From a virus: a DNA stretch of 64,000 nucleotides. Below the pieces are notes generated by a model that saw only the letters and a list, made by a program, of their open reading frames with translations, did not search any database and was not told the origin of the DNA. This document shows positions 2,651 to 60,715 of the stretch, in pieces. The stretch's first letter is position 1. Each line of letters opens with the position of its first letter. Made by a program: the position numbers and the translations under genes. The stretch lies in IMG/VR virus record IMGVR_UViG_3300033183_000299, positions 119,931 to 183,930 of that record; one strand, written 5' to 3'.

Positions 2651-5260
2651 TTACAATTTGACTTGTGCATACCCGTCAGTCTTATCGATCTCAATTGTTG
2701 TATCAACAATGTCCTTGAGACTTTCTAAATGAGTGATCAGCAATACTGTTTTGAATTGAGTTTTGATCATCTGAAGTAATTGAACAAAACCTTCCATATG
2801 CTCAGCATCTAATGCCGTTGCCGGTTCATCAAGAATGAATAGTTGGCTCTTTGGTAGAGACGATACTGAGATTAGGGCAAGTCGAACAGCCATAGAAGCA
2901 ATTGTCTTTTCAGCACCAGACCCCATGGACAATGGTCGAGCATCATATTTCGGATGCTTTAGGTAGACCTCCAACTTATCTCCATCCTCAGCAAAGAACA
3001 CTTGAAAATCAACGATGGAAGAAAGAACTTTTTGGATCTCATCGTTGATGATTGGAAGCATTGATTTGATAACTTCGTATGAAATTCCATTCGCATGAGT
3101 TGCTTTTACAAAGATGTCATAAGCAATGTAATCACGCTCAGCTTCTTTGATTTGTTCAATTCTCTCATTGGCTTCCTGAATCATACGTTCAGCAGAACCT
3201 TTTTCAGACATGTACCCAAGAACCTTTTCATCGCATCGTTTGATATCGGCAATCTTCAAATCAACAGTCTTATTGATTGCTAATAAGTCTCTCTTAAGGG
3301 AGGAAAGGTTTTCATACGCTTCAATGTTTTCGTTGTAGTATGCGATATCTGAATTGAGCTTCTCGATACGATGCTCAGCTAAAGATGCTTTACCTTCAAA
3401 GTTTTCCCACTGAATACTCATGTTTCTGATTTCATCAGTTAGTTTCTTATGAGATGTTTTGCTATCTGAATATCGATTGATAATGTTGTTCAGCGCTTCT
3501 TCATCAAACAAAGAACCTTTCATTTTAAGATCCAAAAGCTTTGACTTGATGTCTTCAATCTCAATATTCATTGGAGGTACTTTGCTTTTTGCTGCTTCCG
3601 CTTCCTTTACAAACTCATTATCGCAACAATATTTACAATCCGGATCGTACTCATGACCTTTGAGCATATCTATCTTTGATTGTAAGTTATCTCTCTTACG
3701 AGTTTTGCTTTGGAGGTCTTTGGTCAACTCTTTTAATTCTGACTTGATGGTCTCTAGGTCTTTGAGTTCAAGTTCAGCCTTATTGGAAGCTTCAAGCATG
3801 CTTGGAAGAGAAGAGGTCAAATCTTCAATCTGAGAGCGTTTTGACTTAATCTTGGTAGACAATGCCTCCATTTGATTGCGAGAACTTGAGAGTGTCTTTT
3901 CGGCCTCTTTAAGAAGTGATTTGACTGAATCAATATCTATCTCTTTTTGGGATGCTGCCTCTACTTGTTCTTTGATCATCGTTTGTTCTTGTTTAAGGGT
4001 ATCTAAACGGATATTGTGTCGATCGCATAAGTCTTTTTGAACCTCGATATCTTCAAGGATCTCGGACAACTCCTCTTTCGCTCGAGACAATTTCTTATCC
4101 CAATCAGCAGATTGAAGATGTTTGATTACGCCACGCATTTCGGCAGAGTCTTGCTTTGCTAGTTTGTGCATTTGATCAAATATTTGAAGATCCAAAAACT
4201 TAGCCAGAATTTCTTTGCGTTTCGTTGATCCTTCGCTGATAAATCCAAAAGAATCGTTCTGTGCTGCTAGAGAGGTCATCATAAAGTCCTCTAATGACCC
4301 AAAAGTATCCTTGATGTTATCATCAGTTTTGTTTCGGGTATCTCCATTTTTGGACTCCGGAGTTGTTCCAAAGTTATACTTTGTAAAGTCTAGCTCTGTT
4401 TTAGCCGAGATGACTTCTCGACCTTTAGACTTTCCGGTTGTTTTTTCGAGGCTTCGAGCAATTTTATAAACATCATCGCCGACAGCGATCTCGAGCTTAC
4501 AAGAAGCTCTTTCTTGGTTTTGATTGATGATATGGACATTCTTTCTTTCTCCCTTAGATGTAGTATTAAATAGGCCAAACAAAGCAGCGTCAATAATTGA
4601 AGACTTGCCTGAATAGTTTTTACCGAAGATGCCCACAAGCCCATTTAACTTGCTGAAATCTAGAGTATTGCCTTTTCCGTAATTAAATAGGTAGTCCCAC
4701 TTCATTTTCTTAATATCCCAAACAACATTTCGAGATACGCCGTTCGATGAATCAACTTTCTTTAAATACTCTTGCGAAAGCTCAACTACGCGATCTTTGA
4801 CTGAGTCTTCAACTTCATTTGTCTCCATAAATTCACGAAGAAACTTTTCTTGATTCTTTGGGTCTCGCATGTTGATTGCCTTACCGCCATTGGCTGAAGA
4901 CACCGAAGCTGATGACTGAGAATTGTTTACAAAAGAAACCGAATGAGTCGACCACTTAACTTGGGCGTAATCGCAGGCTCTCTTTAATTTTGCTGTGGGT
5001 AAGTTATAATTACAAACCAATCGTAAACGAGCATTCTTGGGTACATCTACATTGGGTAGTGTACCATCTTGATTTAGATGCACTGTAATAAATGGTCGAG
5101 GAGATTGGAATAATCTTTTCTCGATTGAATGCTTGTCTTTGGAGTGAATATTCCAAATCAAATAACCTTTTAGGCGAGACTCTCCAAAGTTCTGTTGCAC
5201 AGTGCTGCCTGCATAAATGCAGATGCACTTCTTTTTTCTTAATTTAATTTTTTTAGCCAT
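2651..5260 (-). CDS. sbcC: Mre11/SbcD C-terminal part fused to Rad50/SbcC ATPase (gp46-like)
   Basis: IYAGSTVQQNFGE (late Mre11 motif), Walker A GKNYSGKSS, coiled coils, Zn hook CKYC, signature LSMGSGAE, Walker B LFILDEP, LITH. Own GGAGG RBS. Confidence 0.92.
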   Translation of the reverse strand: MAKKIKLRKKKCICIYAGSTVQQNFGESRLKGYLIWNIHSKDKHSIEKRLFQSPRPFITVHLNQDGTLPNVDVPKNARLRLVCNYNLPTAKLKRACDYAQVKWSTHSVSFVNNSQSSASVSSANGGKAINMRDPKNQEKFLREFMETNEVEDSVKDRVVELSQEYLKKVDSSNGVSRNVVWDIKKMKWDYLFNYGKGNTLDFSKLNGLVGIFGKNYSGKSSIIDAALFGLFNTTSKGERKNVHIINQNQERASCKLEIAVGDDVYKIARSLEKTTGKSKGREVISAKTELDFTKYNFGTTPESKNGDTRNKTDDNIKDTFGSLEDFMMTSLAAQNDSFGFISEGSTKRKEILAKFLDLQIFDQMHKLAKQDSAEMRGVIKHLQSADWDKKLSRAKEELSEILEDIEVQKDLCDRHNIRLDTLKQEQTMIKEQVEAASQKEIDIDSVKSLLKEAEKTLSSSRNQMEALSTKIKSKRSQIEDLTSSLPSMLEASNKAELELKDLETIKSELKELTKDLQSKTRKRDNLQSKIDMLKGHEYDPDCKYCCDNEFVKEAEAAKSKVPPMNIEIEDIKSKLLDLKMKGSLFDEEALNNIINRYSDSKTSHKKLTDEIRNMSIQWENFEGKASLAEHRIEKLNSDIAYYNENIEAYENLSSLKRDLLAINKTVDLKIADIKRCDEKVLGYMSEKGSAERMIQEANERIEQIKEAERDYIAYDIFVKATHANGISYEVIKSMLPIINDEIQKVLSSIVDFQVFFAEDGDKLEVYLKHPKYDARPLSMGSGAEKTIASMAVRLALISVSSLPKSQLFILDEPATALDAEHMEGFVQLLQMIKTQFKTVLLITHLESLKDIVDTTIEIDKTDGYAQVKL

Positions 5261-6048
5261 TTGTCCTCCATTTTATTTGACTTTTTTAAATTTTCTTTCC
5301 ATGGAATGAATTGCAAGTTTGATATATCACCTATGATATCTGGGGATATATCGTTTAACCATCCATAGGAAATTGGTATGATATGGTCCAAATGATAACA
5401 ATCTTCATTCAAATCAGATCTCCCCCTTTTATCATAATGAGGCAAGGTAGATAAATCTTGAGATTCTGTTATTCTCTTTACTTGTTTATAATATCTTTCT
5501 TTATTGCTCAATTTGGCCTCATATTCTTCAAATGGAATTCCAACCATCGTCTCTATTAATGTTTTGCGTCGGCGCTCTATGACATCTGCATCAATCATAG
5601 AGGCTGCGAGTTCAAGCGAGCCGGAGCCATACATCTCTATGCATGTTTGTTCACATTTTTCTCGGCATTCTTTATTGGACCAATTGTGTCGAGAGCCATA
5701 TTTTTCTAAATAAGTCTGTTTTCTCCTTTGAATAGATTCTGGTGACCATCCAAAATTATAGCCTGTTTCTTCAAAAAATTTTTCTCTTGCTTCTTCTCGA
5801 GAAGACAAAACTTTGTCGACATAGTCTTCGTCTTTCCAAAATTCAATCATTGCTTTAGATTTCAAGAGTTTTGATTTCTCAGACTGCTCTTTCCCATACA
5901 TATGGTTTCCTTCACCTTTCATTATTTTCTTTTTATGTTCATCGACGCAGTTTCTAGAGCAATAGTGTCTTTTCGATCTCTTGAGTCTAGATGTTGCTTT
6001 TTCAAATTCAACACAGCAATTATCGCACTTTATTTTAGTCATTTTCAT
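5239..6048 (-). CDS. Free-standing HNH homing endonuclease
   Basis: N-terminal CDNC...YCSRNC, NUMOD3-like GEGNHMYGK, RKQTYLEKYG repeat-like segments, C-terminal YHLDHIIP...NLQFIPWKENLKKSN; GGAGGAG RBS. Confidence 0.88.
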   Translation of the reverse strand: MKMTKIKCDNCCVEFEKATSRLKRSKRHYCSRNCVDEHKKKIMKGEGNHMYGKEQSEKSKLLKSKAMIEFWKDEDYVDKVLSSREEAREKFFEETGYNFGWSPESIQRRKQTYLEKYGSRHNWSNKECREKCEQTCIEMYGSGSLELAASMIDADVIERRRKTLIETMVGIPFEEYEAKLSNKERYYKQVKRITESQDLSTLPHYDKRGRSDLNEDCYHLDHIIPISYGWLNDISPDIIGDISNLQFIPWKENLKKSNKMEDKWLKKLN

Positions 6049-6100
6049 TTTTTACTCCTCCCTTATGTTTTGTTGGATAGTAGTAAATAGTTTTGCTGAA

Positions 6101-6787
6101 CTATTCTTCTACAATTTCCCAACCATTCTTGAGAAATTTATCTAATTCAGATTCATCAATCTCTATTTCTTCATATTCATTTTTATTGAAATCTGAAGTT
6201 CCGAGTCTTTGAGTCTTGTGAATATCTCCAAGCATGGCGTAATCAAAGTCTTCGAAAATTGAAACATCGTCTTCTCCATGGTCCAATGAGAACCCACTTC
6301 CAACCATTGAGCCACGAACAGCTCCATGATACAAGGCTATGTTGATAGCGTTTTCATTAGATGGGGCTTGCCAATTATCTCTATCGAACACAGAGAGAAC
6401 ATTGAAAGTCAGACCTGGCTCTGGAGAGTATTCGCCTGAGTTTTTCAGCAAAGTGAAATTTGGATGATTCATTGCCTCAACAATTGGAGTCACCGCATCT
6501 TGACGATCTCCATTTTTAAGATTTCCATCATGATTTCCAAGAATCATAATTGTTGGTGCGATATCTGCGAGAGACTTCAAAAAGTTAGAAGCCATCTCAA
6601 AATATTCTGGTGATAATTGTGTTTTTGTGTGAGCAAGGTCACCAGTATGTACAATGTAGTCTGGTTGCTCTTGCTTTAATGAGTCATATATTTGATTAAA
6701 CACGTGACGATATTCGTCATGATATTTAAGGTTTCGGATGTGTGTGTCACTAATGTGGCTAATTCTAAACATTTTTTTCTTAGTCAT
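6101..6787 (-). CDS. sbcD: Mre11/SbcD nuclease, N-terminal metallophosphoesterase part (gp47-like)
   Basis: SDTH, GDLAH, GNHD, YHG, GDIH motifs in order, then an acidic tail and stop before the YAGS motif. Confidence 0.92.
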   Translation of the reverse strand: MTKKKMFRISHISDTHIRNLKYHDEYRHVFNQIYDSLKQEQPDYIVHTGDLAHTKTQLSPEYFEMASNFLKSLADIAPTIMILGNHDGNLKNGDRQDAVTPIVEAMNHPNFTLLKNSGEYSPEPGLTFNVLSVFDRDNWQAPSNENAINIALYHGAVRGSMVGSGFSLDHGEDDVSIFEDFDYAMLGDIHKTQRLGTSDFNKNEYEEIEIDESELDKFLKNGWEIVEE

Positions 6788-7104
6788 TTGTCCTCCATGA
6801 TCTTGTTGCGTATTTCTAATGTAACACGATTTGATTGATGTGTCAAGTAAAAATCTTCACTTTCTTCAAAAAAAAGTGGACCACCCTTCATATGCGTTAG
6901 GTCCAAGGTGTTATATTCAAAAAATGTTATGGCCGTTCCATATTCCCAATGATTATACTTCCTCATACAATCCATGAGCATTTCTGTGTGATACACAAGT
7001 CTACCCCTATCAAAAGCTACAATTGCCTCATTGTAATGCTCTTGTGGCTCAATAATAATGAACTCGTGCCCTAACTCTAATCCTTCTTGGATAAATTTAT
7101 TCAT
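6784..7104 (-). CDS. Hypothetical phage protein
   Basis: Start ATG 7104 with AGGAGG RBS; the track's longer start overlaps a promoter. Confidence 0.7.
   Translation of the reverse strand: MNKFIQEGLELGHEFIIIEPQEHYNEAIVAFDRGRLVYHTEMLMDCMRKYNHWEYGTAITFFEYNTLDLTHMKGGPLFFEESEDFYLTHQSNRVTLEIRNKIMEDK
6818..6846 (-). promoter_or_regulatory. sigma70-type promoter for sbcD, inside the upstream gene
   Basis: TTGACA-N17-TACATT with CGTGT before the -10. Confidence 0.8.
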
Positions 7105-10579: not shown

Positions 10580-11113
10580 TTAAGTAGTTTCTCCCCATTT
10601 CTTCTTTAGGTATTCCTCTATCTTTTCTTCAACCAAATATTTGTAAGAGCTATGGACGTACAAATGATGAGTCGGACACAATGGTACAAGATTCTTAGGA
10701 TCATCATTATCGTGATTTTCATCATAATGATGGACGGCGACAATCTTATCTTCTCCGCACACTACGCACACTTTTTCGTGATGAGCCCAGCAGATGCTTC
10801 TGTAAGAATTGCCGGTGCCATAATGGTTTGGCATTATCTCTTTTATTCCCCCAATTTTTTGAGCAGCGTCTTTGCATGATCTAGAACAGAAAAACAAGCC
10901 AGATTTCGATTGTTTCTTTTTGCTGTTGTTTTTGTAAAATTCCTTCCCGCATTTTGCGCACTCAACATTTGGTTTCTTAGGCTTTATTTTTGATACCCTA
11001 TGTGCTGCTGAACATTTTCTTGTACAAAATTTTCCATTTCCCCTCTTCACTTCTCTCAATAATGCTTCAAACTCTTTGCCGCATTGTAGACATGGTTTTT
11101 TAATTGTAGTCAT
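10580..11113 (-). CDS. HNH homing endonuclease with two N-terminal Zn fingers
   Basis: CLQCGKEF..FCTRKC, CAKCGKEF..FCSRSC, CVVCG...VHHYDENHDNDDPKNLVPLCPTHH; AGGAGG RBS. Confidence 0.88.
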   Translation of the reverse strand: MTTIKKPCLQCGKEFEALLREVKRGNGKFCTRKCSAAHRVSKIKPKKPNVECAKCGKEFYKNNSKKKQSKSGLFFCSRSCKDAAQKIGGIKEIMPNHYGTGNSYRSICWAHHEKVCVVCGEDKIVAVHHYDENHDNDDPKNLVPLCPTHHLYVHSSYKYLVEEKIEEYLKKKWGETT

Positions 11114-13182: not shown

Positions 13183-13746
13183 TTAATAATTAAATCTTTC
13201 CGCTCTTTCAATCGCCCTTGTAATCGTTGTTGTGTGAACTCCAATTTCTTTCGCAATTGATCCTTTTGTTTCTCCGGAAAGCCATCTTTCTCTGAACGAT
13301 GCTTCTTGTTCGTCCGTAAATCTTTTATTTGATTTACTTATCTTTCTTCGCCACTCTTCACTCACAGGCTTTCCGTAATGTGGGTGGTTTTCATCGGATA
13401 GTTTTTCAGATAGAAGTTGCTTTACTTCTTCTGTGTGGTTCAGTCCAGCCATAGGAGAGCCGGCTACCCTGCTAATGTTGTAGATTTCTTGACCGCCGCC
13501 AAAGGCTTCGTCAAGATATTCTTGCTCTTTCGCAAGCAAATTTGCTCTTCTTACTTCTTCAATCAATACGAACTCAAATTGATCTTCGCCGTGCTTGTCG
13601 TAAGAATTTTGAAGGTGGAAGTTGGTGTGAGTTCCGCTTCTCAAGTTTGACTTGTGATGTCTCCACCTTCTCTTGATATTGTTTGAAGATCCAATGTAAA
13701 ATTTTCCATTGACCTTATTTGTTATTTTGTAAATTCCCGAGTTCAT
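13183..13746 (-). CDS. GIY-YIG homing endonuclease with NUMOD3 and HTH
   Basis: SGIYKIT...FYIGSS...RW..H...E...N; HTEEVKQLLS, HPHYGKPVSEEWRRKIS; C-terminal IAKEIGVHTTTI. Confidence 0.92.
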   Translation of the reverse strand: MNSGIYKITNKVNGKFYIGSSNNIKRRWRHHKSNLRSGTHTNFHLQNSYDKHGEDQFEFVLIEEVRRANLLAKEQEYLDEAFGGGQEIYNISRVAGSPMAGLNHTEEVKQLLSEKLSDENHPHYGKPVSEEWRRKISKSNKRFTDEQEASFRERWLSGETKGSIAKEIGVHTTTITRAIERAERFNY

Positions 13747-51075: not shown

Positions 51076-51104
51076 ATTATAGCACCCAGTTTTACTGTTG
51101 TCAA
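51076..51104 (-). promoter_or_regulatory. sigma70-type promoter driving the operon that contains the sigma factor
   Basis: TTGACA-N17(..TGc)-TATAAT. Confidence 0.85.
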
Positions 51105-51943
51105 GTATTTTTTAAATTATTTTTCGAAAAACATCTCTCGAGACCTTCCTCAATTGAAACTTGAGGTTGAAAGCCTAAATCTTTTTCGATCTCACTGATG
51201 TCTGCGAGAGTATGTTTCACATCACCTTTTCGTTCTGGGGCGTTGTTCCATTCGACCTCATGACGTTCATTGATAAAGTTTCTAACATGGTTCATCGAGA
51301 CTGATGTTCCAGAACCTACGTTGTAAGCTTTTCCTCCAAACCATTTGTTTGACTGCATTGCTAGAATATTTGCAAGAACAATGTCATCAACATGAACGAG
51401 GTCTCGAGTTTGTTCTCCATCTCCATCCATTCTCAATGGTTTTCCTTGTCGAATCATTTCCATCCATGCACAGATTGCGGTTGAGTACGAGCCCCCGAAG
51501 GCTTGGTCCTCGGAGTAAGCATTGAAGTATCTAAGGCACACCGTATCAAGCCCATAGAGCTCCGAGAATAGCCTACACTCCATTTCGGACATTAACTTAT
51601 GCAATCCATAGGGCGACTTCGGAACACCATCTCCATCGCCATTTACGGCGCTTGAGGAGCTAAAGATTACACGCTTGACGTTGTGATTCTTTGCCCACTC
51701 TAAAAGTGTCGAGGTTACAAGAACATTTTGCTTCATGGTGTATGATGGGTGATGCACGGAAAACTCAACTCTTGGTTGTGCTGCGAGGTGGAAGACATAG
51801 TCAAAGTCTTCGTTTGGAAGACAGTGGAGAATGTCTTCCCCATCTTTAATGTCAATTCCTAGGACGTTATGTCCGAGACGTTGCAATTCAGAGAACAAAT
51901 GACTTCCAATGTAGCCTTTATGGCCGGTTACTAAAATTTTCAT
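51101..51943 (-). CDS. NAD-dependent nucleotide-sugar epimerase/dehydratase
   Basis: [31 protein letters not shown]. Confidence 0.9.
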
Positions 51944-52902
51944 TTTAATTTCTCCAAGTCTGCTTCATACATCATTTTAACAAGTTGCTTGAATGAAGTT
52001 TTAGGCTGCCATCCAAGTTTCTCTTTTGCCTTAGAGTAGTCCCCAAGCAATAGTGGGACTTCATGTGGACGAAAAAGCCTGTCATCAATCTCGACATGTT
52101 CTTCTATTTTTAAGCCGGCTATTCTAAATGTTTCTTCTAAAAATTCTCTAACAGAATATGTTTCACCTGTGGCGATAACATAGTCGTCTCCTTTGTCTTG
52201 CTGCAGCATAAGCCACATTAATTCAACATAATCTCCAGCAAAACCCCAATCTCTCTTTGCATCTAAATTCCCTAAATATAACTTTTCTTGAAGGCCCATT
52301 TTTATCTTAGCTGCAGCCATTGTAATCTTTCTTGTTACAAACGTTTCTCCTCGCCTAGGAGATTCGTGATTAAATAAAATGCCGCTTGAAATATGCATGT
52401 CATAAGACTCTCTGTAGTTTCTGCAAATGTTGTGGGCAAAAACTTTTGCACATGCATAAGGGGATGCTGGCATAAAAGTGGTTAGTTCAGATTGTGGAGC
52501 TTCTGGATTATCTCCGAACATTTCAGAAGAAGATGCTTGATAGAATCTTGCAAGAGGACAAACATTCCTTATTGCTTCCAGAATTCTAAGTGTACCCATT
52601 GCGACAAAATCAGCTGTCTCATGAGGAGTTTCAAACGATACTTTAACATGGGACTGGGCAGCAAGATTGTATATTTCATTTGGTTTATGAGACATGAGAA
52701 GTCTGTGTAAGCACCCTGAGTCGTTCATGTTTCCATATTCTAGTGTGAAATTCTTGTTAGCAAATAAGTGGTCTATCCTACTAGTAGAAATAATGGAAGT
52801 TCTTCTTTTCACTCCGACTACTTCATATCCTTTATCCAATAAGAGTTCAGCCAAATAAGATCCATCTTGGCCAGTTATGCCAGTTATTAGTGCTTTTTTC
52901 AT
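51940..52902 (-). CDS. gmd: GDP-mannose 4,6-dehydratase
   Basis: [51 protein letters not shown]. Confidence 0.96.
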
Positions 52903-53813
52903 TTTATTCCTCGTATATTTGGGTAATTATTTTTAAACCAGTTGATCGTTCTTTCCAAACCAATGTCCATCTCAGTATAGCAAAAATTTGGAAATAAGTC
53001 AATAAATTTTTTATTAGAGCTTGGCTTTTTGAATTGCCCTTCAGGCTTTGAAGTGTCCCATATTATATTTTCTACATTATTAAAATGTTGACTTATTGAT
53101 TCTGCTACTTCTTTTATAGAATATTGATTTGTGTTACCTATGTTGATAGGGAGCTCTTCATCATAGTTTTCCACCAAAAGCAATAGTGCCCTAGCAACAT
53201 CTTCGGAATAAGTAAATTCACGCAATGGGGCTCCGGTGCCCCATAGAATTGGATACTTATTTTCATGCATCTTTCTAATTATTGCCGGAACAACGTGTCC
53301 ATTTTCTAGATCGAAATTATCGTTGGGTCCATATATATTATTTGGAATGGCGGTGATATACTTTAGTCCATACTGTTGCCTTATTGCCCTAGAGTGGACC
53401 TCCAACATTCTCTTTGCATACGCATAGCCAAAGTTGCTAAAGTGCGGCTCTCCACAATGAACCTGCTCTTCTGAGAGGGGATATGTGGGATTGTTGGGAT
53501 ATATACAGGTAGATAACAAAGATAGTACTTTGGGTACCCGCTGCTTTCTAGATTCTTCCAGGATGTTTGTATTGATGACTATGTTGTCATAGAAAAAGTC
53601 AGCTATGTAATCAGAGTTACCCTTTACTCCGCCAACTTTTGCCGCCAAATGAATGACGGCATCTGGCTTATGTTTCACTATTATGTCTCTAGTGGCTTTG
53701 GGGTCTCGTAGATCACAATCTGACGACCCTAGCAAGATCAGACTGTGGTTAGTTTCAACTCTTGAGAAGGACTGACCCACCAAACCAGTTCCTCCGGAAA
53801 TTAGAATTTTCAT
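52899..53813 (-). CDS. fcl: GDP-L-fucose synthase
   Basis: [45 protein letters not shown]. Confidence 0.93.
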
Positions 53814-54472
53814 ATTACTTTACCTTTGTTTCTAAAGATTTCGTCCGTCTTTATATTCGCAACCTTTTCATACCCAACAGTAGAGAGAAATCTTTCTATT
53901 GTATTTTTTTTATAATTGTTCTCAACCATTATGAATCCAAATGAAAATTTATTATAATCAATCGATTTTATAATTTTCTCTTCCATTCCTTCGATGTCCA
54001 AAGACATTATGTCAAAATGATTTGATCCATTTAGTAGACTATAGTTCTCCAAGAGGTCATAAATCTTTACCACTTCACAAGAAACCTCTTTGGGACTAGT
54101 AGAAATTAGGCCTTTGGATATTTCACGCTCAATCCTACTCAAATGATCTTCCTCATATTCCCCTACAATTCCAGATAGGCCGTCTCCGTATCCAGGTTCA
54201 AAAGAAAGAAACTTGATTGTGTCTTCTAGATAATCGTTTGGGACAACAGCTTTTAAAGTTATCTCCTTGCTGTTGGGTCTATTTTCAACAATGGATTCAT
54301 AATTATTTGGATTTGCTTCACACAGGAACGTACTCCATCCAGAATTTTCGAAAAACAAAGAGTTGCTAAATTTGACTCCGTCCAAAGCTCCTATTTCAAT
54401 AAATGAGCCATCACTCTTACCTTCAAAAAAACTACTCAGGTATCTATCTTGTCCAAATTGACTATAATACAT
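53810..54472 (-). CDS. FkbM-family methyltransferase
   Basis: YSQFGQD, FIEIGALDG...SNS, SLDIEG.E. Confidence 0.88.
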   Translation of the reverse strand: MYYSQFGQDRYLSSFFEGKSDGSFIEIGALDGVKFSNSLFFENSGWSTFLCEANPNNYESIVENRPNSKEITLKAVVPNDYLEDTIKFLSFEPGYGDGLSGIVGEYEEDHLSRIEREISKGLISTSPKEVSCEVVKIYDLLENYSLLNGSNHFDIMSLDIEGMEEKIIKSIDYNKFSFGFIMVENNYKKNTIERFLSTVGYEKVANIKTDEIFRNKGKVI

Positions 54473-54475
54473 TTT

Positions 54476-55336
54476 TTATTCTCCATTAATATATTTTTCT
54501 ATGGTAGCCCAAACACTAAACCTATCTAACACTAGCATCTTCGATTCTTCCAAGGCGCTAGATTCTCTTTCTGATATTGGGCGAAAAATCACTTCTAGAA
54601 GGTATTGATCATCCTCAATATGTTGTGGTTCTATAATTCTCATTGAATCTTCTGGAAAGAAATTTTTTATATTTGGACAACCATAATAAATCGGCATAGT
54701 ATCCATCAAGAAACAATCTGTTAGCTTTTCGGAAAAATAATTATTCTCTCTTGAGTTTTCTATGGCCATGGAAAAAAGAAAGTCCTCAAGGGCAGATGCT
54801 CTACAGATCCAATTATCTCTCAAAGCTCCCTTATATGCCGCGCCAAACTTGCTGGTCAGATTATCTTTTCCAAAGATTTCTGCTTCTGTTTTTTGCAAGA
54901 AGCCAGTCTTTAAATTGATTTTTGATATCAAGTCTATCCTGTGTCTCCACTTATTGCTTGTTACTATGCTCATTTTCTTCGTTTTTGTTTTTCTTACAAA
55001 CAATTGCTCTCTAGTTTTTAGCACCCAAGGTGTTGAGACATGATAATACCTATCGTATGAAAACACCTCGCTTATAAAGTTCATTTCGCTGGGGAGTGCA
55101 AAATCTTTAACAAACTTTGGTTCCCTCTGTATTAGAAAAACTGGCTTGTTGAAACTATTTGGATATTTACATAAAGATTGTGTGCCTAATACAATTGCGA
55201 AATCGGCTGATTTTTCATCTAGGGTGGAGGAGACGTTTTTATATGATCCACCAGCATTCGTTGTATACAGGTCTAGCCATTTTTTTAACCTATCTTTAGG
55301 TACGTGGCAAGAGTAGAAAAAGACCTTATATATCAT
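54476..55336 (-). CDS. GT10-like (alpha-1,3-fucosyltransferase-type) glycosyltransferase
   Basis: FSMAIENS...NYFSEKL.DCF...PIYYGCPNI motif. Confidence 0.8.
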   Translation of the reverse strand: MIYKVFFYSCHVPKDRLKKWLDLYTTNAGGSYKNVSSTLDEKSADFAIVLGTQSLCKYPNSFNKPVFLIQREPKFVKDFALPSEMNFISEVFSYDRYYHVSTPWVLKTREQLFVRKTKTKKMSIVTSNKWRHRIDLISKINLKTGFLQKTEAEIFGKDNLTSKFGAAYKGALRDNWICRASALEDFLFSMAIENSRENNYFSEKLTDCFLMDTMPIYYGCPNIKNFFPEDSMRIIEPQHIEDDQYLLEVIFRPISERESSALEESKMLVLDRFSVWATIEKYINGE

Positions 55337-55842
55337 ACAACTCCAAGGCTGCTGAGTGCTTCTGACACTGTCATATTATCCAGGTCCAAACTTTCATCAT
55401 AAGGCTCTTCCGTGTTATGCCCTAAAGCATGCTTTATATGTTCCATCTTCAGCAAGCTCCAGTTTGGCTCGACTGTCCCCAAAACCTTTCTCATCAAAAA
55501 TCTTACCACATAAAATCTTAAGATTTCGGCGGCAGACCTTCTAGATACGACTCTAGCTGGATTTCCAGCTATCACCGAATATGCTGGGAAGTTTCCTCTG
55601 ACGATTGCTCCCGTTCCAACTAGGGAGCACCTCCCTATTGTAGTACCCATCAGAATAGTTGATCGGAATCCAACCCACACCATGTCCTTGAAAACAATCT
55701 TGTTGTCTTTCTTGTATGGAAGAATGGGTCCATGAAGTACTATTTTAGATTCGGTCCCAAGTAAACAATTGTCTCCAATTTCTAGCAAGTGAGGATTCCA
55801 CCTTTCTATTTGCCCTAAATTTTCAAAGTTTTTTCCTATCAT
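55333..55842 (-). CDS. Hexapeptide-repeat O-acyltransferase
   Basis: IGDNCLLG, VWVG, IGRCSLVGTGAIV, IAGNPARVV. Confidence 0.85.
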   Translation of the reverse strand: MIGKNFENLGQIERWNPHLLEIGDNCLLGTESKIVLHGPILPYKKDNKIVFKDMVWVGFRSTILMGTTIGRCSLVGTGAIVRGNFPAYSVIAGNPARVVSRRSAAEILRFYVVRFLMRKVLGTVEPNWSLLKMEHIKHALGHNTEEPYDESLDLDNMTVSEALSSLGVV

Positions 55843-56414
55843 TTGTTTTTCACCATATTCCAAATATTAAAATCAATTTCATAAATTTTTTTTACTTTAT
55901 CAACCGATTCATCAGATAGTCTCAAATCTTCTTTTGGGCTGCTGTTAAAGTGTTGAAGCGTATCTTCTCCGTAAATCTCTTCGAAGAAGTTCTTTACGTT
56001 AGAAAAATTTACGAACTCAACTCCATCGATGCCGTTTATCCAACTAAATTGAGTTTTCCAACCTAGATGCTTAAGAGCTGTTGAGTTGTTGAACAAAATA
56101 TCAACAATTTCATCGATAGAATTGTTTAAACAAACATTGTAGTCCGGATGTTTTCCATCTAGTGATTTTCCATCAATAGAATGCCAGAATGACTTTTTCA
56201 TTCTGGCATATCTATAGCAGGATTCAAGCCTATCGACTGGATCTCTAAATATGCAGATTTTTCTGTATGATTTCCATTCATTGCCGACCATTCTCTTATA
56301 ATAAGACCAATTGTGGTGTCCAGTGTGAGACATGTTATAGCATTTCTCAACAGAAGTTCCAGCATTCTTTGGGATGTGAATGAATATTATTTTATTTTCA
56401 AAATCTATTGGCAC
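55839..56414 (-). CDS. Sulfotransferase family 2 protein
   Basis: FIHIPKNAGTS and RDPVDRLESCY PAPS-binding motifs. Confidence 0.85.
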   Translation of the reverse strand: MPIDFENKIIFIHIPKNAGTSVEKCYNMSHTGHHNWSYYKRMVGNEWKSYRKICIFRDPVDRLESCYRYARMKKSFWHSIDGKSLDGKHPDYNVCLNNSIDEIVDILFNNSTALKHLGWKTQFSWINGIDGVEFVNFSNVKNFFEEIYGEDTLQHFNSSPKEDLRLSDESVDKVKKIYEIDFNIWNMVKNK

Positions 56415-57145
56415 TATTCCTCCAGCCTATCATACTTCTTCTTTTTTCTTATTTCCATATCTAGCCTTATTTGTTTTGCACGATCTTTTTTGTGATCATT
56501 TATTGGATTCGTCAAGTTATAATAGTATAAAACTTCCTCGATACACTTCCATCTGTTGTCCGCCATTTCCAACATTGGAAACATGATCGCCAGATCCCAA
56601 GCCATTTCATAAAAATTACCATCAACATCTTTTAAATCTTCTTTGTTAATATTTTTCCACAACTTATACTTGAAAGTCCTAAGTGCAGAGGCTCTCCATC
56701 TTGCTTCCCTATATGACTTATTCTCTATAACCTGCTTAGAGTATGGCACTACATTTCCTGGAATTATACCATCTGGGTAGTGAATATAGGTTCCATAAGT
56801 CATCAGAGTATCGTCTTGATAATTTTTGTCTAAAATTTCGAAAACCTCTTTTTTTGCAAGCCAATCATCACCGTCTAGTGTAACGATTATGTCTTCGTCA
56901 TTTGGGTTTGCGAATTCTATCGCTTCCACTATATTTCTTAATGCAAACTTTTTTTCTTTATTTTTTATGAGCTTTATTTTTTCACATTCAAACTCTTGAA
57001 TTATTTTTGCACTATTATCCGTTGACATGTCGTCAATATAATAGCACTCATAATTCTTATAAGTCTGTGACAAAACGCTTCTTATATTTGTTTTTATCCA
57101 TTTCTCAACATTGTACAGAGGTACGATAACTATGAACTTATTCAT
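56414..57145 (-). CDS. GT2 glycosyltransferase
   Basis: IVPLYN, IDDMSTD, LDGDDW. Confidence 0.88.
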   Translation of the reverse strand: MNKFIVIVPLYNVEKWIKTNIRSVLSQTYKNYECYYIDDMSTDNSAKIIQEFECEKIKLIKNKEKKFALRNIVEAIEFANPNDEDIIVTLDGDDWLAKKEVFEILDKNYQDDTLMTYGTYIHYPDGIIPGNVVPYSKQVIENKSYREARWRASALRTFKYKLWKNINKEDLKDVDGNFYEMAWDLAIMFPMLEMADNRWKCIEEVLYYYNLTNPINDHKKDRAKQIRLDMEIRKKKKYDRLEE

Positions 57146-59069
57146 TTAATAGCTCCTCAAATTCTTTTGAGTTTTCTGGGAAGAAATTTAGTCCAAACTT
57201 CTCTTCGATCAAACTCTTTAACAGTGTTTGTCCACCAAATTGAGTATATGAATCGTCGTTATGCCAAACCTTAGAGGTTTCGTTGAATCCCAGACTGTAC
57301 CCTGCTTTGGACAAATCTAAGCTAAATTTTACATCTTCGGACACTCCACCTACTTGATCTTCGCGAATAAAACAATTGTCATCCCAACGAATAAAGTTGA
57401 ATATTTCACGTCGCACCATTATAAATCCTGAGGTTTGATAAAGGCTTTTGTCATACTGTGGATGGTCATAATCTACTATTTTGTGCGGGTTCAATGTTGC
57501 CCTGTCCCAATGACGCGTCCCATCCGGATTTAACAATTTATTGCCTAAAACATTCCAACCGGCTTGCCTAGAAAATGATAGTGTGTTGGTTAACCAATCT
57601 TTTCCTAACAAAATGTCATCATCCAGCCAAGCAATTGTATCGTATTTAGAAGCATCTCCTCCGGCATTACGAAGAGTTGCAACTTTACGAGAATGTGCTT
57701 CTTCAGCTTTGTCTACCAAAGTTACACCATCAATGTCTCTAAAGTTCTCAACGTCTCCAGCAATGATAATTTCATGAGGAAAATCGCCAAGCTCTCTCTT
57801 AATCGATTTAATGGTTAACCTTGTTTTCTCAGGCTTAGCTCCATTTGTGGGGATACAAAATGAAATCGCATCAATTTCAACTGGTTTTAAATTTGATTTT
57901 CCCAAGATAGAATTACAAAATCTTTCATAAAGCCTCTCTGTTCTAAATTGACTCTGAACTAACTCTTGCAATTCAAGCGCTTGGCTTTTATAATCATCCC
58001 ACCGCTCATAAACCATTTGAAGAGCCATCTTATATGAGCCCTCTTCGGCGTATGCCCATTGAGCATTTTCTTCAATCACCCCTTTCCAGACAGCATTTTG
58101 ACCAACGGTATCTAAAACATAGCTAACAGCAGCAAAATAATTTTTGTTGTTGTGTCTCAAGAAGTCCATTTGACCAGACCATGGAATTGTAACGATCGGC
58201 AATGCAGCTCGAGCAGCTTCGAACAATGGAAGGCCAAAACCTTCTCCATGAGCAATGTTAACCAAAGCCTTCACCTTATCATGTTCATAAAGGGCTCTCA
58301 TTTGCCCCTCAGAGAGATCTCCATGAAGAAGTGATACAGAACACTTGCGATTAGGATACTTGCTTAGAATGTTCCCTAAGCGGCTCTCAGTGGCCTCTAA
58401 ATCAATGCGAGAACTACCCTTGATGCAAGTCTTAACGATCATCCCAACTTCTTTGTCTTCAAACTTCTCAACAAACCAACGAACGGTGTTCTCGAAGTTC
58501 TTTCGTGGGCCGAATTGTGACACAACCAAAAAGTTGAAATCATGTCGAGGATTGAATCCTGGTATTTCTTCAACTTCGGAAGCTAGTGGGGTTGTTTCAT
58601 GAACGACTTCAATTGGAGTCTGCAATCGATATTGCTCTCCACTTTGTAGGGTAACGTGAGTTTTCTCGTAGGTTGACTTTGCATGATCTGATACGACAAG
58701 AATCTTGTCCATCTCGTTGCCTTTCTCAAGCCAGATGGGAGATACTCGATCTGTTTCAATCCCTGCTGTAAATGCAACATTAATTGGGCACATCTTTTTG
58801 AATTCATTTGGAATCGTAATTTGCAAAGAGATATCTGGTTGCAATTTCTTCTGCTGCAATAAAACTTGTGTTTCTCCGATACGAGCATCTAGCCAATCTC
58901 GTTCCTCATCAGTTTTCCAGATCCATCCAGATTTCCCCCAAGGAATTGGTTGAACATAGATGTCGAACAGATCTTCGCGAGACCTCAATGCTCGGAGAGC
59001 AAAGCGAGACTGTTCTCCATAGCCAGTAGCACTCAACACAGGTGCTCTTACAAAAATTTTCTTTTTCAT
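57138..59069 (-). CDS. Fused GT4-like + GT2-like glycosyltransferase
   Basis: RKN and GEGFGLPLFEA (GT-B), then ISFCIPT...RN.G...WLDDD...SED (GT-A). Confidence 0.85.
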   Translation of the reverse strand: MKKKIFVRAPVLSATGYGEQSRFALRALRSREDLFDIYVQPIPWGKSGWIWKTDEERDWLDARIGETQVLLQQKKLQPDISLQITIPNEFKKMCPINVAFTAGIETDRVSPIWLEKGNEMDKILVVSDHAKSTYEKTHVTLQSGEQYRLQTPIEVVHETTPLASEVEEIPGFNPRHDFNFLVVSQFGPRKNFENTVRWFVEKFEDKEVGMIVKTCIKGSSRIDLEATESRLGNILSKYPNRKCSVSLLHGDLSEGQMRALYEHDKVKALVNIAHGEGFGLPLFEAARAALPIVTIPWSGQMDFLRHNNKNYFAAVSYVLDTVGQNAVWKGVIEENAQWAYAEEGSYKMALQMVYERWDDYKSQALELQELVQSQFRTERLYERFCNSILGKSNLKPVEIDAISFCIPTNGAKPEKTRLTIKSIKRELGDFPHEIIIAGDVENFRDIDGVTLVDKAEEAHSRKVATLRNAGGDASKYDTIAWLDDDILLGKDWLTNTLSFSRQAGWNVLGNKLLNPDGTRHWDRATLNPHKIVDYDHPQYDKSLYQTSGFIMVRREIFNFIRWDDNCFIREDQVGGVSEDVKFSLDLSKAGYSLGFNETSKVWHNDDSYTQFGGQTLLKSLIEEKFGLNFFPENSKEFEELLNE

Positions 59070-59369
59070 TTATTCTCCGATTAGTGCTAATTCTAATGAT
59101 GAGAAGATTTGCTCCTCTCCTTTAATCAAGACCTTATACATCGTAAAGCCTTGGAGGTCCCTATCGACCTCCTCAACAATCAAGCCAATATCTCTTTGAG
59201 ATGTTTCAGCTAAATCCCCAACTCGTACTTGCTCTATCATTTGTAAGTGCCTAGGATGTACGTTATATGTTATTGGAGATTTAAGCTCGTCTTTAACAAT
59301 CATATTGAGATAGCCTGAGTCTGCATAAACAGACATCTTTCCATTAGGAAGGTAGAGATCTTGACTCAT
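59070..59369 (-). CDS. Hypothetical protein with SH3/KOW-like C-terminal half
   Basis: Start by ATGA overlap at 59369; VGDLAE...IGLIVE...YKVL. Confidence 0.6.
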   Translation of the reverse strand: MSQDLYLPNGKMSVYADSGYLNMIVKDELKSPITYNVHPRHLQMIEQVRVGDLAETSQRDIGLIVEEVDRDLQGFTMYKVLIKGEEQIFSSLELALIGE

Positions 59370-60631
59370 GCGACTTCCTTGAAAGTGATGCTGCTGTAAC
59401 CTTTCCTTGTCTCCCAAGAACCATGCTCTTCATGAACCTTAAGCATAAGATTGACCCATCTTTTGGAAAAACTTTCAAAGTTGTAGTTTTGCTTGACATG
59501 TTGTGCTCCTTTTAATCCTAAGTCATGGCGATCCTCTCGAGACAATGCATACATTTTGTCGAGAGCGTTAAATAATTGTTCTTTTGAAATTCTATCTTCG
59601 TAGATATATGGGACCTGTTGTGATCCAATAATTGCTTTTGATGTGGGGTAAATGGGGATACCAAACGGGCCATCAATTCCCATGATTTGCTCTTGCAAAC
59701 CACCAGTCATATTGACGATGATTGGTGTTGCACAAGACAAAGATTCCAATGTCGCCAAGCCAAAACCCTCAGCGTCAGCAATATTAATTGTACAGTCTGC
59801 AGATGTATAAAGCAATGGTAGTGTATTCAGGGACAGTTTCTTTGTCGAGAACACAATTTCACGATTCGTCATGTCTAAGTGAGATGCAATCTTATTAAGG
59901 TCTTGACCATGTGGGTCAAATGGGTTAGTGTGCATAATCAACTGTGCTTTGTCGTTTAGACCTCTTTTGTCCAACCATTCTTTCCACCACCACAATAAAG
60001 ATCCAGATTGCTTTCGTCGTGCATTTCTATTGTTCCAAAATACAATGAACTTATCTTGATCGATCTCTGGGATGATACGGCTTCTAATTTCTAACTTTTC
60101 TTCTAGGGTCACTGGTTTGAACATTGTTGCATCTACAGCATGGGGAAGATATGTTGCCGGGACATCCGGTGCAACACCTTTTACACATTCGTGGGTAATT
60201 TTTGAAATTGTAGCAATATGATCATTTGATTCATAAAACTTCTTATTGAACATTGGAAGTGGCTTGTTATCCCAAACATGATAATAGACCATTGGAAGAA
60301 GTGGTCGAATTTCATTCTCCATTTCCCACAACCATTCATAGAAACGAGGATCAGTCATGAACCATAAAATATCTGGTTTCTCATTTCTGATTACTGAACG
60401 GATCATCTCTTGAGTACCATAGCCATCAACTGGGATTACTTTCCAGTCTTCGCCATATGGGTCAATGAGGCGAGGAGTGTAATCTTGGTGTTTCACAGCT
60501 CCACCTAAAGATAAGACTTGGAATTTTCCACTTTTTAATAGAGCTTCCATAACATACTTTGTTTGAGTACCAACTCCAGATGGAGACAAGGGATGGTCGC
60601 TCAAAGTTAAAACTTTAATTTTCTTAGACAT
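59366..60631 (-). CDS. GT4-like glycosyltransferase
   Basis: SDHPLSPSGVG, NNRNARRK, AEGFGLATLES, TGGLQEQ; start MSKKIK at 60631. Confidence 0.88.
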   Translation of the reverse strand: MSKKIKVLTLSDHPLSPSGVGTQTKYVMEALLKSGKFQVLSLGGAVKHQDYTPRLIDPYGEDWKVIPVDGYGTQEMIRSVIRNEKPDILWFMTDPRFYEWLWEMENEIRPLLPMVYYHVWDNKPLPMFNKKFYESNDHIATISKITHECVKGVAPDVPATYLPHAVDATMFKPVTLEEKLEIRSRIIPEIDQDKFIVFWNNRNARRKQSGSLLWWWKEWLDKRGLNDKAQLIMHTNPFDPHGQDLNKIASHLDMTNREIVFSTKKLSLNTLPLLYTSADCTINIADAEGFGLATLESLSCATPIIVNMTGGLQEQIMGIDGPFGIPIYPTSKAIIGSQQVPYIYEDRISKEQLFNALDKMYALSREDRHDLGLKGAQHVKQNYNFESFSKRWVNLMLKVHEEHGSWETRKGYSSITFKEVA

Positions 60632-60658
60632 TGCGTATCCTTTTGAATTTTTCGAGGC

Positions 60659-60712
60659 AAAAAAAAACAACCTCATCATTAAACCTATTATATCACAGGT
60701 TGATGAGGTTGT
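60659..60712 (-). terminator. Terminator hairpin superimposed on a promoter
   Basis: 12-bp perfect inverted repeat ACAACCTCATCA/TGATGAGGTTGT followed by T8. Confidence 0.7.
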
Positions 60713-60715
60713 CAA
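60687..60715 (-). promoter_or_regulatory. sigma70-type promoter for the glycosylation operon
   Basis: TTGACA-N17(..TGa)-TATAAT. Confidence 0.85.

Follow-up and report, generated by a model that had tools for sequence, protein, structure and literature searches.

A phage Mre11-Rad50 gene divided by an HNH endonuclease gene belongs to a family of intein-less split genes that share a pair of oppositely charged peptides

How can a phage gene carry an endonuclease gene in its middle and still give a working protein if the interruption is not removed by splicing? The question is raised by a 64,000-nucleotide stretch of viral DNA (IMG/VR record IMGVR_UViG_3300033183_000299, positions 119,931 to 183,930; hereafter the window, whose first letter is position 1), in which the Mre11-Rad50 gene at 2651-6787 is split by an HNH endonuclease gene. 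The phage genome to which the window belongs measures 183,930 bp and is probably circular and complete, because its ends are repeated. A preliminary description had noted that the upstream part of Mre11 ends in an acidic peptide (the tail) and that the downstream part begins with a basic one (the head), and had proposed that the two peptides clip the halves together. We found the same split, at the same site and with the same tail, at 51 distinct loci. With a probability of about 0.7, the window carries a fractured-gene cassette of the type that leaves a C-terminal extension (CTE) on one half and, on the other, one at the N terminus (NTE); the halves would reassemble non-covalently, with tail and head acting as a clasp or as an aid to assembly.

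All three open reading frames (ORFs) of the locus lie on the minus strand, and their order, domains and terminal sequences bear out the preliminary description. The first (6101-6787, 228 aa) encodes the N-terminal half of Mre11/SbcD with phosphoesterase motifs I-V (Pfam Metallophos, E=8e-15; PHROG SbcD-like, E=4e-20) and ends in the acidic extension (6104-6202, aa 196-228, net charge -9), which we assign to the cassette and which is predicted to form a strand, a helix and, after a GW motif, a second strand. The second (5239-6048, 269 aa) is a free-standing, putative homing endonuclease with an N-terminal Cys cluster, a NUMOD3-like region, DUF7487 and a C-terminal HNH domain, matching PHROG homing endonucleases (E=2e-8) and, over residues 174-261, HNH endonucleases (E=6e-5). 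The third (2651-5260, 869 aa) begins with the basic extension (5228-5260, aa 1-11, net charge +7), likewise assigned to the cassette, and runs from YxGS onward through the last Mre11 core strands and the capping domain into Rad50 (Pfam SMC_N/AAA_23), including the Walker A motif, a coiled coil with a CxxC hook and the Walker B motif. The break falls directly after phosphoesterase motif V and before the YxGS strand, leaving all five phosphoesterase motifs, and with them every metal-binding motif, on the N chain.

Each of the two internal starts is preceded by a ribosome-binding site (RBS) of the GGAGG type. That of the HNH gene is GGGAGGAG (6055-6062, minus strand), and the GGAGG of the C-terminal half (5265-5269, minus strand) lies within the HNH coding region, 4 nt before the ATG of the third ORF, the start of which is overlapped by the HNH ORF for 22 nt. 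The candidate promoter noticed earlier upstream of the HNH gene is ACTATTTA (6084-6091, minus strand), located inside a weak 8-bp hairpin (z=-2.0 only). Genome-wide there are 29 copies of this motif on the minus strand and one on the plus strand, and the window has nine against 3.2 expected (positions 1815, 6084, 7382, 8472, 10487, 11313, 13900, 14534 and 21949); because of this strand bias and excess, it is likely to be a credible phage promoter-like motif.

The uninterrupted form of the gene shows what the cassette has replaced. An alignment to uninterrupted homologues had been suggested, and all 43 viral relatives found by homologue search (L001-L043) proved to be unsplit and to carry neither peptide. 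Where an ORF among them is complete, Mre11 and Rad50 form one chain of ~1040-1080 aa in which 12-13 residues separate GDIH from YxGS; a natural one-chain Mre11-Rad50 of ~1055 aa is a feature of this phage group (the window and L001-L043). In 141 of 146 contiguous cases the spacing is 10-13 residues (mode 12), as the preliminary description had supposed with its figure of about 10; two alleles with longer loops at the break site and no tail motif (L184 and L214) were counted as intact. The cassette stands in place of ~7 codons of the intact gene. Residues 1-190 of the window's N half are 91-93% identical to the nearest intact alleles; in the C half, identity to intact alleles is 83-93% over the 200 aa at either end, except for the second 100-aa block (75-77%).

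The peptides had been described as new at this locus, a view that did not hold, for they form an old and conserved pair. The same tail ends 30 N halves, 217-249 aa long, that came from a protein search, and scanning viral, metagenome and genome collections for DNA patterns gave the 51 split loci. Because dozens of independent contigs show the same split and the same peptides, the split is not an assembly artefact. The tail has the consensus E-x-x-L-x-x-Y-L-x-x-G-W; the head alternates hydrophobic and basic residues in the pattern K-[IYF]-K-[ILV]-x-K/R (36 aligned loci). In every one of the 39 complete pairs the net charges of tail and head have opposite signs, with means of -5.6 and +4.7, respectively. 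In eight close pairs of loci the proportion of nonsynonymous differences in the peptides (pN) was 0.13 and that of synonymous ones (pS) 0.50, so that, judged from these ratios, both are under purifying selection. One N half with the same tail (P0251) also has a LAGLIDADG intein in its GNHD motif, two mobile elements thus residing in one gene.

What lies between tail and head varies widely. The 51 spacers hold an HNH gene (9 loci), a Vsr/DUF559-like gene (8) or a TnsA-like gene (5), the Vsr and TnsA labels resting on motifs and on Pfam matches below threshold; 11 others hold an unrelated gene of about 300 aa, 12 no nuclease gene (spacers of -22 to 666 nt), and 6 are incomplete. Tail and head are retained after the nuclease has been swapped or lost. 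The HNH protein of the window is 42-77% identical to the same-site HNH proteins of the eight other loci, and its nearest cultured match, in Microcystis phage Mel-JY01, is only 40% identical. The unrelated gene has no Pfam match, and its 11 loci form one clade, with longer heads and lower-charge tails; it is 294-315 aa long (L074:124-900, L093:6528-7472, L108:3603-4484 and eight related loci) and looks glycosyltransferase-like by eye, an unverified reading.

Spacers of such unrelated content, from -22 to 1016 nt over all split loci, bear on whether an unrecognised intein, an intron or translational bypass rejoins the halves after all, either in the RNA or by a covalent link. A similar cassette in T4 gene 60 is coupled with a bypass element, and in the window a Cys happens to come after the head. 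Against rejoining, no Hint or intein Pfam match was found at the locus and no group I or group II intron in an Rfam model scan of positions 4800-6800; the tail lacks a conserved C/S/T at its N terminus, the head lacks a conserved His-Asn, and it is usually Pro that follows the head. Moreover, every C half begins with a start codon of its own. We consider rejoining highly improbable, and the earlier statement that intein signatures are missing stands.

A series of loci from one lineage records what can follow the insertion. One allele still has its HNH gene (L455), two have lost it by deletion with a 133-nt remnant of its 3' end left behind (L313 and L453), one is fused (L106), and in another fused allele most of the tail has gone and only remnants of tail and head persist (L188). 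In L106 (4726-4896, minus strand) tail and most of the head are joined in frame in an HNH-free ORF of 1078 aa. L106 and L313 (441-783) are 95% identical in DNA; L106 differs by one further deletion between GAAGAAA repeats (7-nt microhomology), a loss that covers a stop codon, what remained of the HNH gene, the start codon and some of the head.

The contiguous peptides of L106 could be taken to mean that tail and head were first a host-derived insertion domain of an intact Mre11, into the loop of which endonucleases landed later, and contiguous peptides in an HNH-free homologue had been named beforehand as an observation that would speak against a split held by a clasp. The DNA junction, however, is a deletion relative to the split allele L313, and the tree described below groups L106 with split alleles; L106 is therefore read as a secondary re-fusion of the split form and does not refute the split-clasp reading. 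Besides, only one full-length (L106) and one degenerate (L188) fused case occur among the 146 contiguous ones, and no long protein bearing the L106 insert turned up when such proteins were searched for. For L106 these comparisons largely refute the insertion-domain account, to which we give very little weight, although L106 is a single contig in which an assembly error is possible.

A tree was built of the Mre11 N-terminal core. Split and intact alleles interleave in it, with 21 changes of state over 114 rows, at least 8 of them forced by strong branches, and the nearest row to the window is an intact allele; the window's allele is ~91% identical to intact alleles and ~60% to most split ones. 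A single split clade was rejected by the approximately unbiased (AU) test with p=2.7e-5 on a 44-row subset, a value weakened by the choice of the subset after the first tree had been seen; the subset omits long-branch rows such as L452. The interleaving of the two states and the rejection of one split clade show repeated exchange between them.

In our reading, a mobile unit consisting of tail, promoter, endonuclease gene, RBS and head occupies one fixed site of Mre11-Rad50, bounded by motif V and the YxGS strand. The endonuclease presumably cuts intact alleles near that site, by which the cassette would spread through homing; afterwards it can be exchanged, replaced or deleted with tail and head left in place. 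The separately translated halves would assemble non-covalently into a working Mre11-Rad50, to which the N chain brings the metal-binding motifs; the final strands of the core come from the C chain, as do capping domain and Rad50. Acidic tail and basic head most probably pair as a small clasp of beta-sheet plus helix, or at least steer or stabilise assembly, and such a clasp would make the insertion tolerable. Conservation and charge suggest, with good though not full confidence, that tail and head contact each other at the break.

The main alternative, though we think it unlikely, is that the halves pair through the native Mre11 interface, by strand complementation and the capping domain, and that tail and head serve higher-order (Mre11-Rad50)2 assembly, active-site shape, solubility or end protection. 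In the comparable Aeh1 protein, deletion of the tail kept the heterodimer and cut activity ~2000-fold (PMC3045599). A sizeable native interface is to be expected here, since the split falls between neighbouring core elements of the established Mre11 fold, and purifying selection on the peptides fits this model equally. On the other side, only ~7 residues of the intact chain lie between the attachment points of tail and head, the charges are opposite in every complete pair, and both peptides survive joined in L106; direct contact between tail and head is therefore favoured, whatever its downstream role. The two ideas are not mutually exclusive.

Several results weigh against reassembly through a tail-head clasp or the homing that goes with it, or decide neither way. 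The charges of tail and head covary with rho -0.62, but without one clade the value drops to -0.18 (p=0.33), and we rejected the correlation as a clade effect. AlphaFold2, applied to residues 1-314 of L106, gave a pLDDT (predicted local distance difference test) of ~80 for the tail helix and below 50 for the head and the C part, with a thin alignment whose C-half rows MAFFT could not align or misplaced. In Aeh1 the tails are essential for activity and higher-order assembly and not for the heterodimer, meaning that a simple clip failed in the one case tested (PMC3045599). Finally, HNH and Mre11 divergences are alike and track each other; because of this, homing and repeated loss or reversion by recombination are not separable as the direction of exchange, and both fit. 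Of the charged clip proposed at the outset, the intein- and intron-free split, the opposite charges and the selective retention of the peptides stand; the single mini-domain stays a proposal, AlphaFold2 giving only the tail helix with confidence. The L106 insert alone reached a mean pLDDT of 62.5, and a complex prediction of the tail (33 aa) with the head region (30 aa) from 36-row alignments scored 0.22 against a mark of 0.32 and was used neither way.

Where might the tail have come from? A profile built from 29 tails was searched against 1.84 billion representative proteins; it has 29 columns, and so short a profile is of limited sensitivity. It matched 185 proteins. Among the best 150 matches, 149 of them new, were 135 proteins with a tandem 30-aa repeat, 12 Mre11 N halves, one 33-aa tail fragment and one spurious repeat. 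Many of the tandem-repeat proteins have a GIY-YIG-like or HNH-like domain ahead of the repeat, which runs strand-turn-strand-helix-GW-strand and whose last three elements are those matched by the tail (HHalign 96.7%). This value and the score of the tail against a position-specific scoring matrix (PSSM) of the repeat are partly circular, as it was the tail profile that retrieved the repeats; a single repeat has a median score of 18 bits with that profile. PHROG gave independent but weak matches, reaching at most 16 of the 36 tails (E 0.0008-0.014 at best), and tails and repeats match the same small families (phrog_1175, 21831, 29625 and 1378). Both have I-x-x-x-E-L-x-x-Y-L-x-x-G-W in common, whereas the repeat of these endonucleases and small phage proteins is basic, tandem and equipped with its own first strand. 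The tail resembles the beta-alpha-beta half of an endonuclease repeat, a possible origin for it.

The repeat itself is apparently unnamed, occurs in 3-7 copies in phage GIY-YIG/HNH endonucleases (P0122-P0270) and has no Pfam model; further examples are in an SLH-domain protein (P0211) and a large protein apparently carrying inteins (P0255). The Pfam family DUF4177 was not accepted for the tail, as its matches are weak (E 0.024-0.036, 3 of 29 tails). The tail profile had no match in the PDB, and the best score of a feature search of the ESM Atlas (0.81, small unnamed viral proteins) lay under the reliability mark.

If the tail came from such a repeat, the head could correspond to the missing first strand of the module. 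Their likeness is by eye only and not significant (HHalign 0.1%; PSSM score barely above shuffles). In the furthest-reaching form of this idea the clasp is a split beta-beta-alpha-beta endonuclease module, with strand 1 in the head and strand 2, helix and strand 3 in the tail, and the Mre11 halves attached at the former hairpin turn; on that view the 11-aa/25-aa pair would form a heterodimer that is autonomous and of high affinity, and would serve foreign proteins as a minimal split tag, with natural variants such as the low-charge L074 clade as orthogonal pairs. We regard this as doubtful. Use of the peptides at other genes, on which the earlier idea of a portable tag leaned, did not appear within the limits of the short profile: among the best 150 matches every single-copy one follows the GDIH of Mre11 or is a fragment of such a tail, all 120 tail matches in 4.7 Mb of loci (a biased sample) follow GDIH, and INPHARED phages have no tail at other genes.

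Elsewhere in the window are two further free-standing endonuclease genes, a GIY-YIG/NUMOD3 gene (13183-13746, E=3e-13) upstream of a primase-like gene and a weak HNH match (10580-11113, E=0.02) beside tRNA-Ala. A by-eye reading suggests that nucleotide-sugar and glycosyltransferase-like genes cluster at positions 51101-60715 (epimerases, a GDP-mannose dehydratase-like and an FkbM-like methyltransferase gene).

How does the locus compare with known systems? The principle of an intein-less fractured gene with charged tails was already published in 2009-2010, and the novelty claimed at first was overstated. Dassa et al. (2009, PMC2677866) described, in the Lake Gatun data of the Global Ocean Sampling (GOS) expedition, an SbcD-like gene that a Vsr-like ORF splits with no intein. 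Extensions of 25 aa (C-terminal) and 9 aa (N-terminal) fall between consecutive conserved motifs, and the endonuclease overlaps the downstream ORF. This locus shares with the window the two ORFs, the free-standing endonuclease between them and the short extensions, and the eight Vsr-like loci found here have the window's tail and head; the window differs in having HNH instead of Vsr-like and an Mre11-Rad50 fusion as the host gene. Compared by description, not letter by letter, the two are likely to share break point and peptides.

Charge-complementary tails were proposed by Crona et al. (2010, PMC3045599) for nrdA-a/mobE/nrdA-b of phage Aeh1, where, as also reported by Gibb and Edgell, an HNH gene splits an essential enzyme into two chains with oppositely charged tails and no splicing. 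There the host gene is different, the charges are reversed (tail +6, head -6) and the tail scores ~0 bits with our tail profile. Neither the Aeh1 nor the T4 extensions match that profile, and they are at most marginal against the repeat profile (Aeh1 tail 3.2 bits, with 12 of 300 shuffles as high); a short stretch of the NrdA-a tail (L578:8208-8330) marginally resembles the strand-helix start of our tail, with charges reversed. The topoisomerase genes 39/60 of T4-like phages, with their MobA element (bioRxiv 10.1101/2022.08.31.505936), show conserved CTE and NTE, nuclease swap (HNH, GIY-YIG, VSR), loss and secondary fusion. Common to both systems are the fixed site, extensions kept on fusion, the swapped or lost nuclease and an acidic CTE (-7) with a basic NTE (+6), whereas genes 39/60 have unrelated extensions of ~44 aa, translational bypass and a different host gene. 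Split inteins with a free-standing endonuclease (gp41-1, NrdJ-1 and IMPDH-1; Dassa 2009) resemble the locus in the three-gene layout, the promoter or hairpin before the nuclease and charge-complementary halves; unlike them, it has no Hint halves, N-terminal C/S or C-terminal His-Asn with C/S/T, and its chains would stay separate. Nor does it have the catalytic RNA core of a group I or II intron (4800-6800), and its spacers are variable. At the sequence level these features of the fractured CTE/NTE class are present: a gene broken between consecutive motifs, an endonuclease with its own signals overlapping the downstream ORF, and conserved non-host extensions with no intein or intron.

To these systems our analysis adds the breadth of one family, the junction of a re-fusion and, as a possibility, an endonuclease repeat as the source of the tail. 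It provides a large natural series of a selfish endonuclease living in an essential gene without splicing, through insertion, exchange, capture of an unrelated gene, loss, re-fusion and tail decay. If tail and head bind each other, they would be a candidate small heterodimer tag; being the shortest among the CTE/NTE pairs compared, they are convenient for testing the direct tail binding that the Aeh1 work left open.

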